Shown one piece after another: positions 60,170 to 64,000 of a DNA stretch of 64,000 nucleotides. The stretch covers positions 99,441 to 163,440 of the forward strand of contig JAVJQW010000048.1 of assembly GCA_040218735.1 (NCBI GenBank), in the 5' to 3' direction. The position numbers and the translations under genes were made by a program. Within the stretch, counting starts at the first letter, position 1. Every line of letters begins with the position of its first letter. The DNA comes from Deltaproteobacteria bacterium. GTDB lineage: Bacteria > Myxococcota > Kuafuiibacteriia > Kuafuiibacteriales > Kuafuiibacteriaceae. Below the pieces are notes generated by a model. The model saw nothing but the letters and a program-made list of their open reading frames with translations, made no database searches and was not told where the DNA came from.

Positions 60170-60550
60170 ATGAGAAAAATGCGAACGACGATGAAACTCT
60201 TGGCCGTCGCGGCTCTGGCGGGGGCCATCGGCTGCGAGGCGGTCGAAGGCGGGGGCGAACCATTGCCCAGCCTCGATGGACCCGTGGAGGTCGCGACGAC
60301 GAACACCGGCCTCGACGCCGACTCGGGCTGCCTCTACGTCAGCGGCGCCAGTGAGTGCGGCGCGAAGGAGGACTTCCGGACCGCCTCGCTCGCCGCATTC
60401 TACGGCTGCGTCTATCACCCCGCGTGTAAGGAGACGAAGGTCGTCATCCAGCACGTCTGTGATGGCGTCACCGAGAACGTGCTCGTGTTCGGCTCGAAGA
60501 GCGGAACGTATCGCCAAGTCCCGTGCGCACCGGCCGCACCCCCGATGTGA
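60170..60550 (+). CDS. Small Cys-rich lipoprotein
   Basis: AGGAGG RBS; lipobox GAIGC; six further Cys; start may instead be 60179 or 60191. Confidence 0.75.
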   Translation: MRKMRTTMKLLAVAALAGAIGCEAVEGGGEPLPSLDGPVEVATTNTGLDADSGCLYVSGASECGAKEDFRTASLAAFYGCVYHPACKETKVVIQHVCDGVTENVLVFGSKSGTYRQVPCAPAAPPM

Positions 60551-60561
60551 GGAGGTCTGAA

Positions 60562-62460
60562 GTGAACCCGAACACGAAACGTTACCTCCCCATCCTCGTC
60601 TTGGTCGCCGCCGTCGCCGGCGGTGTGTACCTGACGCGCGGTCGGCAGCTCACCGGCGAGGCCGGCGGCATCGGCATCGAGGGCCACCTCGCGCACCTCG
60701 GCAAGGTCGACCAGGGCCTGATGGCGCAGCTCGACGGGCTCGTTCAGAAGACCTCGAGCACGAACGTCCACACGGTGGATCAAGACGCGATCAAGTCGAT
60801 CAGCGACGCGCTCGAAGCCCGCGGCGTCAGCGCGCTGCGCTCCGCGACCACGCACTTCTCCGAGAACGGGTGTGTGCAGCCCGGCTCCGCCGCCGAGGTG
60901 AAGCTGATCGTGAGCATCCTGAAGCGGCCGGACGTCACGCCTGTGCAGCGGCGGGTCGTCAGCTACGTCCTCCTCGACGCGGCGAAGCACGCGATCGGCG
61001 ACCTGAAGATCGGCAAGGTGGCTTCGCCGGGTGACAAGCCGTTCTCCTCGCACCCCGGGATCGCGAAGGCGGTCGACGACATGAAGGCCGGCGCGTTCGA
61101 CGGTGAGCTGCCGAAGCCCGGCACGTCGGTCGATCCGAGCGCGACGATCTGGGACTGCACGTTCGGCGCGCTGCAGGGCGTGGCCGATGCGCTCCGCGCG
61201 GGTGTCGTCGACGCGAGCACGCTGCAGCGGCAGGCGCTCGAAGGCCTCGATCTGCTCCCGAAGGATCACCCGGCCGCGGTCGGCTTCGTGCAGGTCGCGA
61301 CGATGGCGGCGAGCGCGGCGAAGAAGCCCGCGTCGGACTACCTCCAGATCATCGAGCGGAAGGATCTGTCGGACGTCGTGCGTGGCATCGCCTGCAAGGC
61401 CGCGGTCGACACGGGGGTCGAGCTGTCGACGCTGAAGACGTCGATCGGCGAGCGCCCGCCGCGTCCGTTGGTGTCGTGCCTGGTGTCGGCGGGTGACGAA
61501 GACACGATCCGCGAGGCGGTGAAGGCGAGTGACTTCAACCTGCGGATGCAGGCGCTGCGGAAGCTCCCGATCCCCGCGACCGCCGAGGGCGTGAAGACCG
61601 CGCTCGACGCCGCCGCGCTGCCGGAGATCTCGCCGCGTGAGCGCGCCGTGCGTATCGGCGCCATCGCGGGCGCCGCGACGAAGTGCGCAGACCCGGCTGC
61701 GTGCCTCGCGCCGCTCGACACGTTCGTGCAGAACAAGCCGAACCTGAAGCTCCCGCAGCACCTCGCGAGCGCGCTGCACGCCGCCAACCCGAAGCACCCG
61801 ATGCTCTCCGCGGCGGTCGGTGAGCCGAAGGTCGGCATCGCGGCGACGCTCGGTCAGATCGCGAAGGGCGACGCGCCGGTGCAGCTGCCGTCGAGCATCG
61901 CGGCGAAGCCGGCGGCGGGTGCGTCCGACGCCGCGGACACCGCGGGACTCGAGCTCTCCGCGCCGGATGCGTCGGCGGTCTGTGACTTGGTCATCGAGCC
62001 CGGTCTCGCGCAGAAGACGATCGACGAGGCGTTCCACAACATCGAGAGCGGTGTCGTGTGCGCGAGCCCCGGTCGCTACGTCGGTCCGGTGGTCGTGTCG
62101 AAGCCGAACATCTTGCTGCGCGCGCTCCAGGGCGCGGTGGTGCTCGAGGGTCCGGTGATCGTCGAGGTCCCGACCACGCTCGTCGGCTTCCAGGTCGAGG
62201 GCCCCGTGGTGGTCGCCGAGACGGCGCACGGCGCGGTGCTCGCGAACAACATGCTGAAGGCCGGCGGCGTCACGCTGACGGCGCAGCTCGGCCTGGTCGG
62301 CAACACGATGGACGAGGGCAAGACCTTCGAGGCGCCCGGCGGCGTGATGTCCCCGGCGCAGGCGAGCTCGAACCTCGTGCTGAAGGGCCAGCAGAGCAAG
62401 AAGCTCGGCGTCGGCGAGTCCGTCATCGCGCTCGACGCCCGATGGCCCCCGAGGATCTAG
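60562..62460 (+). CDS. Membrane-anchored hypothetical protein, helical body with C-terminal beta-helix-like region
   Basis: GGAGG RBS before GTG 60562, N-terminal TM, TIDEAF...ASPGRYVGPVVVSKPNILLRA motif typical of the start of a beta-helix. Confidence 0.8.
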   Translation: MNPNTKRYLPILVLVAAVAGGVYLTRGRQLTGEAGGIGIEGHLAHLGKVDQGLMAQLDGLVQKTSSTNVHTVDQDAIKSISDALEARGVSALRSATTHFSENGCVQPGSAAEVKLIVSILKRPDVTPVQRRVVSYVLLDAAKHAIGDLKIGKVASPGDKPFSSHPGIAKAVDDMKAGAFDGELPKPGTSVDPSATIWDCTFGALQGVADALRAGVVDASTLQRQALEGLDLLPKDHPAAVGFVQVATMAASAAKKPASDYLQIIERKDLSDVVRGIACKAAVDTGVELSTLKTSIGERPPRPLVSCLVSAGDEDTIREAVKASDFNLRMQALRKLPIPATAEGVKTALDAAALPEISPRERAVRIGAIAGAATKCADPAACLAPLDTFVQNKPNLKLPQHLASALHAANPKHPMLSAAVGEPKVGIAATLGQIAKGDAPVQLPSSIAAKPAAGASDAADTAGLELSAPDASAVCDLVIEPGLAQKTIDEAFHNIESGVVCASPGRYVGPVVVSKPNILLRALQGAVVLEGPVIVEVPTTLVGFQVEGPVVVAETAHGAVLANNMLKAGGVTLTAQLGLVGNTMDEGKTFEAPGGVMSPAQASSNLVLKGQQSKKLGVGESVIALDARWPPRI

Positions 62461-62466
62461 GCCCAA

Positions 62467-62850
62467 GCCCGCCGCGAATGCGGCGGGCCTGAGGACTGTG
62501 CCCAGTTCGTTCGCGCAGCGAACGACCGTGAAGGGCCAAGGCCGAAGCCCGCCGCGAATGCGGCGGGCCTGAGGACTGTGCCCAGTTCGTTCGCGCAGCG
62601 AACGACCGTGAAGGGCCCCGCCGCGAATGCGGCGGGCCTGAGGCCTGTGCCCAGTTCGTTCGCGCAGCGGGCGACCGTGAAGGGCCAAGGCTGAAGCCCG
62701 CCGCGCATGCGGCGGGGCTGAGGTTTGTGCCCAGTTCGTTCGCGCAGCGGGCGACCGTGAAGGGCCAAGGCCGACGCCCGCCGCGAATGCGGCGGGGCTG
62801 AGGTTTGTGCCCAGGCGTCCCGCGTAGCGGGCCGGCATTATGGCCAAGGC
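62467..62850. repeat. Tandem array of five ~80-bp double-hairpin (REP/BIME-like) units
   Basis: Units start at 62467, 62547, 62616, 62696 and 62776 (periods 80, 69, 80, 80). Each has a GCCCGCCGC-GAAT-GCGGCGGGC-type and a TCGTTCGC-GCA-GCGAACGA-type hairpin. Confidence 0.95.
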
Positions 62851-63051
62851 GCAATGCCGTTCACTTAGCGGACGGGCCTGCCTCGAGCCCCCATCAGGCC
62901 GCGAGGTGCGCGTCGAGGTAGGGAAGCGCGCCGGAGCCGCGGAGCGACTCGTCCCTCGGCCGCCGTTTCGCCGGGCTGGTGACGGCGGGGGTCCCCGGAC
63001 GGCAGTGCTCAGAAGGAGGGCGGCGCTCTCGAACACCGGCTGGTATCGCTC

Positions 63052-64000
63052 TCACGAACTGCCCTCCGCGCGTGCCGGTGGCGTCGGATGCGGTTCACGC
63101 CGAGGACGCTCGGGACATGCGCCTGGCCTGGTCCGGGTGGAGCGGCGCTCGTGAATCCTCCGATCGATGAAGGCGCGACCCAACACCTCCCGCGCCGCGT
63201 GAAGGTTGTGCGCGCGACACAGTAATCGCAGCTCGCCGACCACGCTCTTGGCGCCCAGCGTGCGGCCGCCCACGTGATCGAATTCGAGGTTCGACCGTTC
63301 GCTGCACCGCCGTCCGTCCGGGCTCACGAACGTGCACTGCGCGCCGTCGCGTTCGACCACCGCACGCCGCGTCGCCGCCGGGACGTACGCTGCGCCCGCG
63401 GGTGCATCCTCGACGGGTCTCGATCGCGGACGGGTCGTCTTTCCGTTCTTCCTCCGTTCCAGCTTCTCCACGTAGAGCGCGAGCGCGGCTTCGAAGATCT
63501 CCCCGATGTCCGTCCCAGGCGGGGTGAGCTCCTTGGCTCGATCCAAGAGCGCCTCGGCTTCGGCGCTCCCGTCGAAGCGAAAAGCGAATGTCACCGCGGT
63601 CGCCGCCTCGACGCGATCGTCACTGCTCTTCGCTCCCGGGAACTCGGTAGCGATCAGCATCTCGACCTCGGCCTTGGACTTGTTCCGCGCCTGCTCGACG
63701 AGGCTGTGGGCGTTTTCATCGTTCATGAACTTCGAGAGCTTCGCGACACCGGTCATGTGCAGCTCTCCGTTCGCGATCATCTCGAACACCTCGGGCACCC
63801 GCCGCGCCGCGCGCACCACGGCGACCCGCCGGCACGCCTGGTCCTCGGTCAGCCCGAGCCCCTCGACGCAGAACCGGAACAGCGAGCTGAAGCCACGCTC
63901 CACGTAGAGCTTTCGCCGCTCGATCTCCGCCATGAACCGGAGCGCCTGCACACCGCTCTTCAGCTCGGCGCGAAGCGCTTCACGAAGTCCGCTCAGGAGA
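63052..64000 (-). CDS. HNH-domain protein (DUF222-like helical N-terminal region), 5' end beyond the window edge
   Basis: Frame is open to the edge (LLSGLREALRAELKSGVQALRFMAEIERRKLY...GFSSLFRFCV..LGL); C-terminal RRAVVERDGAQCTFVSPDGRRC...LEFDH...LRLLCRAHN. Confidence 0.85.
   Translation of the reverse strand, partial: LLSGLREALRAELKSGVQALRFMAEIERRKLYVERGFSSLFRFCVEGLGLTEDQACRRVAVVRAARRVPEVFEMIANGELHMTGVAKLSKFMNDENAHSLVEQARNKSKAEVEMLIATEFPGAKSSDDRVEAATAVTFAFRFDGSAEAEALLDRAKELTPPGTDIGEIFEAALALYVEKLERRKNGKTTRPRSRPVEDAPAGAAYVPAATRRAVVERDGAQCTFVSPDGRRCSERSNLEFDHVGGRTLGAKSVVGELRLLCRAHNLHAAREVLGRAFIDRRIHERRSTRTRPGACPERPRREPHPTPPARAEGSS

Follow-up and report, generated by a model that had tools for sequence, protein, structure and literature searches.

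Insertion sequences of the IS5 group prefer CTAG as their target, IS200/605 elements have ends without inverted repeats and without target duplication, and ISC/OMEGA elements include an HNH-only relative, IshB. Excerpts of two reports describe HNH genes of the REP13E12/DUF222 kind as repetitive, with 19 in M. tuberculosis, and as substrates of recombination (PMC10589994, PMC13157036), and an excerpt of a third describes nuclease-only non-autonomous transposons in the form of ISC elements that encode Cas9 homologues (PMC4810608). Here we consider a locus at the end of a 64,000-nucleotide stretch of the Deltaproteobacteria bacterium assembly GCA_040218735.1 (the whole stretch is called the window), where a gene for an HNH nuclease-like protein lies beside a tandem array of five hairpin units. 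The closest named family of this protein is DUF222/13E12 (REP13E12) of Actinobacteria, and in the literature, covered mostly outside subscription journals and supplements, we found no HNH-only element described as having inverted repeats and target duplications. The genome that contains the window (G000) is an assembly of 70 contigs, 96.5% complete and with 68.8% G+C.

An initial annotation, made from the letters alone, read the nuclease gene and the hairpin array as a candidate single mobile unit, in which the repeats would be cognate structured DNA or RNA, in the manner of REP-RAYT or IscB-omegaRNA. The explanation that we favor, and that we regard as probable though well short of assured, is that two separate mobile elements lie side by side because both land at the rare tetranucleotide CTAG: one whose only gene is the HNH open reading frame (ORF), and a short miniature inverted-repeat transposable element (MITE) that makes up the array. 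This explanation draws on features that we observe directly, namely how the HNH element is built, with its terminal repeats and flanking duplications, how many copies there are, purifying selection acting on its ORF, a MITE that is independent of it and an enriched adjacency between the two. The parts of the locus are these:

62461..62540, + strand: MITE unit 1, 80 nt, two hairpins, GTGAAGGGCC-type end
62541..62609, + strand: MITE unit 2, 69 nt, 98.6% like unit 1
62610..62689, + strand: MITE unit 3
62690..62769, + strand: MITE unit 4, left half in common with unit 5 and right half with unit 3
62770..62849, + strand: MITE unit 5, with the commoner TTATGGCC-type end (here ATTATGGCC), 70-76% like units 1-4
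62842..62851, no strand assigned: 10-bp stretch next to the HNH element, where the target duplication would lie, GGCCAAGGCG
62852..62872, - strand: right terminal inverted repeat of the HNH element, an exact match to the 21-mer
62852..63051, - strand: 3' non-coding tail of the HNH element, 200 nt, with 0.82-0.88 mean pairwise identity among copies
63052..64000, - strand: ORF of the HNH element, last 315 of 330 codons and the stop
63205..63336, - strand: HNH core (C-X9-C, DH, C-X2-H-N), residues 237-280 of a full-length copy
60523..62460, + strand: upstream ORF of 645 aa, convergent with the HNH ORF; context, in neither element

The HNH gene is the sole ORF of an insertion-sequence-like multicopy element of about 1.8 kb. 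A complete copy on contig C33 (1795 bp) consists of a non-coding leader of ~600 nt, an ORF of 990 nt (330 aa) and a tail of ~200 nt; the window copy, cut off where contig C4 and the window both end, lacks its first 15 codons and the leader of ~600 nt. About 25-30 copies are present in G000, and they break the assembly: tblastn with the ORF finds matches on 30 of the 70 contigs at 75-100% amino acid identity, very often at contig ends. Blastn with the complete flanked copy gives 77 high-scoring segment pairs (HSPs) with common limits, and every 50-nt bin from element position 191 to 1940 is covered by 19-31 copies, with fewer at the extreme ends. In four public sequencing runs from four studies, contig depth, when summed, is many times higher over the element than over the flanking gene. 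Of the 20 listed public runs in which the locus occurs, none is an RNA run.

Both ends of the element carry the same 21-nt terminal inverted repeat. With up to four mismatches this 21-mer matches at 44 places in G000, 41 of which could be assigned to a left end (20) or a right end (21), and a genome search found no other gene or sequence with it. The ~200 bp at 62852-63051 that the initial annotation called unique are the 3' tail with the right terminal repeat, a segment covered by 25-31 copies. The annotation had also named two outcomes that would speak against its model, a repeat dispersed independently of HNH genes and HNH paralogs without such a tail. The repeat is indeed dispersed mostly independently of HNH genes; the tail, by contrast, is present in every paralog with a visible 3' end, because it belongs to the element.

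Outside the ends lie 10-bp direct repeats. When the two flanks of the same copy are compared, they agree at 10 of 10 positions for a copy on contig C29 and at 9 of 10 for the copy on C33, and two pairs of ends on different contigs, each breaking inside a copy, have flanks that match at 10 of 10. Three exact 10-mer matches occur among 441 left-right pairs, against 0.092 expected from position-specific base frequencies. Positions 4-7 of the flanking 10-mer read YTAR (CTAG, CTAA or TTAG) in 26 of 42 flanks, and several of the others, the window copy included, have TTGG, CTTG or CAAG there. CTAG is very rare in this genome (1891 sites), and many HNH insertions lie directly on the stop codon of a neighboring gene. 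At the window locus, the core of the flank is CAAG where other copies have CTAG, the flank overlaps the last bases of MITE unit 5, and its partner lies beyond the contig end. In the contigs of the four public runs many different flanks adjoin position 62852, and in three of the four the contigs have loose ends there with differing flanks.

Several side observations concern the copies and their flanks. CAAG also stands at 62537-62540, 62686-62689, 62766-62769 and 62846-62849 in the window, where most MITE borders have CTAG, and CAAG, CTTG or TTGG flank HNH copies on contigs C6, C58, C59, C60 and C39, a recurrent one-base change of CTAG. In all four runs, contigs lead from position 63694, inside the ORF, through 11 other letters that include CTAG to the element terminus at 62852; this joint looks like one HNH copy inserted into another. 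At C38:27-122, and at the same place in C60, the 3' end of a group II intron (Rfam RF00029, 44.4 bits, gathering score 40) lies directly upstream of the HNH start codon in place of the usual leader; each of the two contigs begins within this intron end. Two HNH copies, at C38:1-1450 and C70:403200-404170, share a 45-nt deletion and differ in their downstream flanks; lost with it are the right terminal repeat, the target duplication and the start of an adjacent MITE, which leaves tail and MITE fused. We considered whether a MITE end serves the HNH element in these fusions and set this aside, since gene conversion between MITE-flanked copies explains them equally well.

The ORF copies are under purifying selection: over the 66 pairs among 12 copies, the median ratio of nonsynonymous to synonymous substitution rates (dN/dS) is 0.18 at a median dS of 0.27, and stops occur in 4 of 47 match pieces in G000. 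Substitutions by codon phase stand at 0.169/0.061/0.055 in the ORF versus 0.141/0.159/0.160 in the leader, which has no codon periodicity, no skew in G+C at third codon positions and stops in all frames. The leader is weakly structured. RNAalifold gave z from +2.6 to -5.2 for seven leader and tail segments against column shuffles, with one leader segment alone at -5.2; column shuffling is too coarse a control for an RNA to be claimed from these values. Searched against Rfam at E<=1, the window locus and three full-length copies gave no match on the element and one chance snoRNA match elsewhere in the locus.

The core residues of the protein are well kept. C237, C247, D256-H257, C276, H279 and N280 are present in all 12 genome copies examined; across 41 aligned family members (40 of them 31-69% identical to the window protein), C237, C247, H257, C276, H279 and N280 do not vary. 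The window protein itself has no Pfam match at E<=10, including HNH (PF01844), HNH_5 (PF14279) and DUF222 (PF02720); the name HNH gene given by the initial annotation thus holds for the core residues and the fold and not at the level of a Pfam match on the protein itself. Among the 41 family members, Pfam matches are to HNH in 27, HNH_5 in 14, RuvA_C in 11 and DUF222 in four, the last with a best E of 1.7e-4. Families of HNH proteins in PHROGs match the protein at E 0.003-0.004, and its best NCBIfam match is the HNH region of IscB (residues 225-290, E 0.0022, 17.2 bits against a cut-off of 175 bits).

An AlphaFold model of the protein has a predicted local distance difference test score (pLDDT) of 89, and a structural search with it returned modest resemblances: residues 26-136 to a ParB/KorB/Spo0J-like DNA-binding domain (Z 5.7-6.7), residues 150-203 to a small ribbon-helix-helix-like part (Z 4.4-4.8), and residues 215-292 to the HNH proteins GVE2 (Z 6.5), IscB (Z 6.3) and McrA (Z 6.2). 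On this model we assign the protein to the HNH (His-Me finger) nuclease fold. No RNase H-like, RuvC, HUH or recombinase fold was among the structural matches, and Pfam and NCBIfam searches of the protein found no DDE, DEDD, HUH, serine recombinase or tyrosine recombinase domain. Foldseek with the model gave no match at E<=0.001, and a sequence search against solved structures gave nothing useful. A defense-system reading was dropped, with zero PADLOC families.

The hairpin units are copies of an independent two-hairpin MITE of 72-80 nt that lies between CTAG sites. Iterated nhmmer finds 73 unit copies at 61 loci in G000; nearly all are bracketed by CTAG or YTAR, and none has a 10-bp duplication. 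In an alignment of 27 copies, 95% of cells are paired, compared with 32-41% in slid controls, and 12 of 23 pairs show compensatory changes, a count that none of 500 shuffles reached; the two hairpins are conserved by compensatory change. The MITE's own ends are weakly inverted, and one of them has GAGGCCG, as in an IS5/IS1182-like element of this genome. No autonomous parent was identified for it. Homology between a MITE end and the HNH terminal repeat was rejected because the likeness (~70% over 22 nt by eye) is at chance level, and an IS630-type transposase as the mobilizer was rejected because PF13358 had no match over the cut-off.

In the window, the initial annotation was right that the array is a true tandem repeat (62459-62814, TRF period 80, 4.6 copies, 88% matches), that it is polarized, and that it is not CRISPR-like, the units standing head to tail without spacers. 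The 20-mer of hairpin 1 occurs five times in the window and never in 100 shuffles, with start spacings of 80, 69, 80 and 80. Units 1 and 2, which agree at 68 of 69 positions, lie farthest from the HNH gene, and the divergent unit 5 lies nearest to it. The gap that holds the array, put at about 590 bp, measures 591 bp from the + strand ORF stop (62460) to the - strand HNH ORF stop (63052) and contains the five units and 200 bp of other sequence. Two MITE subtypes are mixed here, units 1-4 having one type of end and unit 5 the other. An 11-nt junction deletion joins unit 2 to unit 3, and unit 4 is a mosaic, since its halves match units 5 and 3, respectively. Mosaics of neighboring units together with the junction deletion point to units that duplicated locally and exchanged unequally, as opposed to five insertion events; the array would thus have grown by local tandem duplication and exchange between neighboring units. 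The array starts at CTAG 62457-62460, which contains the TAG stop of the 645-aa ORF. That ORF has a hydrophobic stretch at its N-terminus and matches no Pfam family at E<=0.01.

The MITE and the HNH element are distributed independently among genomes. A covariance model finds 73 MITE copies in G000, 43 in its sister genome G001 (75% complete), one or two in three other genomes, and none in G003 and G036. G001 has MITE arrays of three units; it holds a single HNH homologue, 49% identical, and no copy of this HNH element type was found in it. G003 and G036, conversely, have HNH elements with zero MITE matches. Within G000, 11 of the 61 MITE loci are within 40 nt of an HNH element and 50 are elsewhere. 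Eight of 44 visible HNH element ends abut a MITE (3 of 22 left ends and 5 of 22 right ends), in both orientations. The 11 MITE-associated ends comprise these eight, the left end of a copy on C21, which has a weak, partial MITE match 19 nt away, and the ends on C38 and C70, where truncated MITE remnants are fused and the element's own terminal repeat is deleted. At the window locus, the 10-bp flank includes the last bases of unit 5, which puts the MITE border in the target position. The 10-bp duplication separates the HNH element from the MITE, which is thus external to it. The enriched adjacency is best explained by both landing at the same rare CTAG.

A third family that abuts CTAG is a non-coding MITE of ~790 bp with terminal inverted repeats of ~230 bp, recovered as 63 blastn HSPs. 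A 227-bp derivative exists, and the terminus of this family abuts the hairpin MITE in about 10 places. Its parent is likely an IS5/IS1182-like insertion sequence present in two copies, with matches to DUF772, DDE_Tnp_1 and DDE_Tnp_1_6. Places where the family can be seen in G000 include:

C23:222956-223741
C60:298993-299219
C1:165-251
C57:~60-1647 (L025)

Because the HNH element, the hairpin MITE and the ~790-bp family all abut CTAG, these sites are shared hotspots, and the 1891 CTAG sites of the genome are used by at least three element families. Thus, elements competing for a rare target site can be enough to bring a nuclease gene and a structured repeat together.

The HNH family extends well beyond this genome and is patchy but multicopy in many Myxococcota genomes. 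A search with the single protein found it in 5 of 41 relatives, a profile search in 56 of 301 genomes of the phylum, with one taxonomic family holding it in 38 of its 40 genomes, and a search of a 1.84-billion-protein library returned 11,086 cluster representatives at E<=1e-30. The gene is likewise found within repeats of 1.6-1.9 kb in G036 and G133, which have their own, different inverted repeats. The closed genome of G133 has 38 matches to a 14-nt terminal motif versus none in the control; a comparison of the two match lists places 34 of them at HNH units and leaves the other four solo. Twelve inverted pairs of the motif, 1651-1876 bp apart, each enclose one HNH match, and the motif search found no other gene with the related termini in this closed genome. 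In G003, six 98%-identical HNH copies have a sharp 3' boundary at CTAG or CTAA (L040, L044, L047, L061-L063) and ragged left ends, with 5' boundaries that vary between copies.

Three side observations concern these relatives. Some HNH units of G003 carry an optional insert of ~72 nt in the tail. The HNH elements of G036 (L039, L059, L060) adjoin, and hold near one end, a palindromic repeat, CCCTCTCCCCGC..GCGGGGAGAGGG. In G133, HNH elements are embedded in tandem (GGGGTC)n or (GGTCGS)n hexamer arrays, often on both sides and over hundreds of bases, as at G133:C1, where arrays at 466646-466721 and 468601-468622 surround the HNH copy at 467249-468346 (loci L064-L069). A 22-nt pattern of these hexamers has 616+608 occurrences in G133 versus none in the control, and some arrays lie away from any HNH match. 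The hexamer arrays may be a target, or footprints of repeated insertion and excision.

The idea that nuclease and array form one unit takes its strength from the adjacency itself, which is far above chance, and from the fact that both G000 arrays of at least three units adjoin HNH copies; the compensatory conservation of the hairpins and the repeats beside HNH elements in relatives (the hexamer arrays of G133, the palindromic repeat of G036) point the same way. However, 33 of the 44 visible element ends have no recognized MITE within 40 nt, the 50 MITE loci elsewhere have no HNH gene nearby, and where the two do meet, the MITE may be at the left or the right end and in either orientation, with the 10-bp duplication separating it from the element. 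Each of the two also occurs without the other in related genomes, the protein has no RuvC or HUH domain, and the element has no Rfam family. We therefore give the one-unit model almost no credence: what survives of it is a multicopy, mobile-element-like gene for a distant DUF222-type protein, without the functional link to the hairpin repeat. Two elements with a shared target is the explanation that we prefer, and three observations weigh against its simplest form. The adjacency is ~8-fold over a random choice of CTAG (11 loci for ~27 insertions versus the 4.1% of sites, 78 of 1891, that are MITE borders); target sharing needs an extended preference (GGnCTAGnCC-like) that is read from flank counts alone; and arrays of at least two units make up 5 of 11 HNH-adjacent loci but 3 of 50 others (Fisher p=0.003). 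Pure target coincidence thus does not fully explain the excess of arrays beside HNH copies, which may reflect more target sites in arrays or a nuclease whose cutting promotes array growth. The latter can be framed as an addition compatible with any of these explanations, in which HNH cutting at the duplicated target leads to repair errors and, as a by-product of repeated cutting, tandem arrays would grow beside the copies, covering both the MITE arrays of G000 and the (GGGGTC)n arrays of G133. The array excess, the mosaic of neighboring units in the window, as unequal exchange would give, and the abundance of the G133 hexamer pattern on both sides of many HNH copies are consistent with it. We nevertheless consider it improbable, because arrays simply hold more CTAG (roughly ~21% of sites versus 45% of insertions, a difference that is not significant), because G001 has three-unit arrays without the HNH element, and because some of the G133 arrays are not at HNH copies.

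As to what moves the HNH element, we see a nearly even prospect that the ParB-like/HNH protein is the element's own mobility enzyme. The stronger proposal, that the protein is itself a His-Me-finger transposase that reads its own 21-nt repeats and a palindromic 10-bp target and represents an unrecognized insertion-sequence superfamily, we hold more tentatively. Such a protein, made up of a ParB/KorB-like helix-turn-helix, a small ribbon-helix-helix-like part and an HNH nuclease, would bind the terminal repeats through the helix-turn-helix part, would probably act as a dimer on the palindromic target (on the basis of target symmetry alone) and would cut the symmetric target with a 10-bp stagger, after which the ends would be joined and the gaps filled, either by the protein itself or through host repair, giving the 10-bp duplication. 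A number of points count against a self-moving element. We know of no HNH enzyme that does strand transfer, and all prokaryotic transposons with inverted repeats and target duplications known to us use DDE transposases or Cas1 (casposases). All 12 copies examined have Glu in place of the middle Asn of the HNH motif. Divergence among the copies is 7-15%, with none near-identical, so recent activity is not shown, though young copies could be hidden by collapse at contig ends. We found no empty site in the contigs of the four runs over the window, and no listed piece spans the junction of gene, array and element; compared with G001, the contig that matches the C29 locus stops before the insertion point and gives no syntenic empty site, and three of five same-genus (g50) genomes matched a G133 locus at one flank each, with no synteny across the site. 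With neither an empty site nor an insertion polymorphism, mobility is read from anatomy alone. Finally, at 96.5% completeness and 70 contigs, a partner transposase could sit in an unassembled repeat. Alternatively, then, the element may be non-autonomous, moved in trans by an unlinked DDE-type transposase that makes 10-bp staggered cuts, with the HNH protein carried along as cargo; it might serve in retention or homing, by cleaving a target site that the element has left or does not occupy and thereby prompting repair that restores the element there. A retention role of this kind has been proposed for TnpB and IscB in IS200/605 elements. Terminal repeats with a target duplication are the classical DDE signature, the IS5/IS1182-like transposase element of G000 also has ends abutting CTAG, and the synonymous divergence marks the copies as old. 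Nuclease-only non-autonomous transposons are moreover a known kind, as the excerpt on ISC elements describes (PMC4810608). We think movement in trans rather unlikely all the same: no other gene in G000 has these termini, and none in closed G133, where the motif matches are at HNH units or solo, has the related ones; the IS5/IS1182-like element has different ends; the terminal repeats vary from genome to genome in step with the protein subfamily, as would be expected if the protein recognizes the ends of its own element; and a gene carried as cargo in ~25 copies would be expected to degrade, yet dN/dS is low and stops are few.

If it is true that the HNH protein moves the element, it would represent a new catalytic class of transposase. 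This would also explain the multicopy DUF222-like HNH genes of many genomes, including the long-unexplained 13E12 repeats, and a compact, sequence-specific nuclease with a readable target could be of use as a tool.

Compared with known systems, the hairpin unit resembles MITE and REP repeats in being short, non-coding and dispersed (73 copies), in lying at gene ends, and in its compensatory hairpins, constant CTAG flank and occasional tandem clusters. It differs in that its terminal inverted repeats are weak and that it has two different hairpins, as opposed to one REP palindrome. The arrangement differs from REP-RAYT in the protein beside the array, an HNH nuclease without an HUH (Y1 transposase) domain, and the HNH element differs from IS200/605 in having inverted repeats and a 10-bp duplication. 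With the ISC/OMEGA elements of IscB it shares a nuclease as the sole gene of a multicopy transposon and a long non-coding region upstream of the ORF, and the IscB HNH is both the best sequence-family match (E 0.0022) and among the top fold matches (Z 6.3). Unlike IscB, however, the protein has 330 aa and no RuvC or PLMP domain, and unlike OMEGA and HEARO, the element has no Rfam RNA family and its leader is weakly structured.

The likeness to DUF222/13E12 lies in the architecture, with a helical part at the N-terminus and an HNH motif at the C-terminus, in multicopy genes that are treated as repeat elements, and in the 4 of 41 aligned family members that match PF02720. The window protein differs in having no PF02720 match, and the excerpts on the DUF222/13E12 genes make no mention of terminal inverted repeats, target duplications or a defined target. 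Those features are instead shared with classical insertion sequences of the IS4/IS5 type: 21-nt terminal inverted repeats, a single ORF, tens of copies, a fixed 10-bp target duplication with a palindromic core, and insertions that are intergenic and mostly just past stops. What sets the HNH element apart from these is an unusually long leader (~600 nt), copies that are 7-15% diverged, and above all an ORF that combines a helix-turn-helix with HNH and has no DDE/RNase H-like, DEDD, HUH, serine recombinase or tyrosine recombinase domain. We thus file the HNH element as a variant of the insertion-sequence kind, one that would amount to a new category should the HNH protein turn out to be its transposase.

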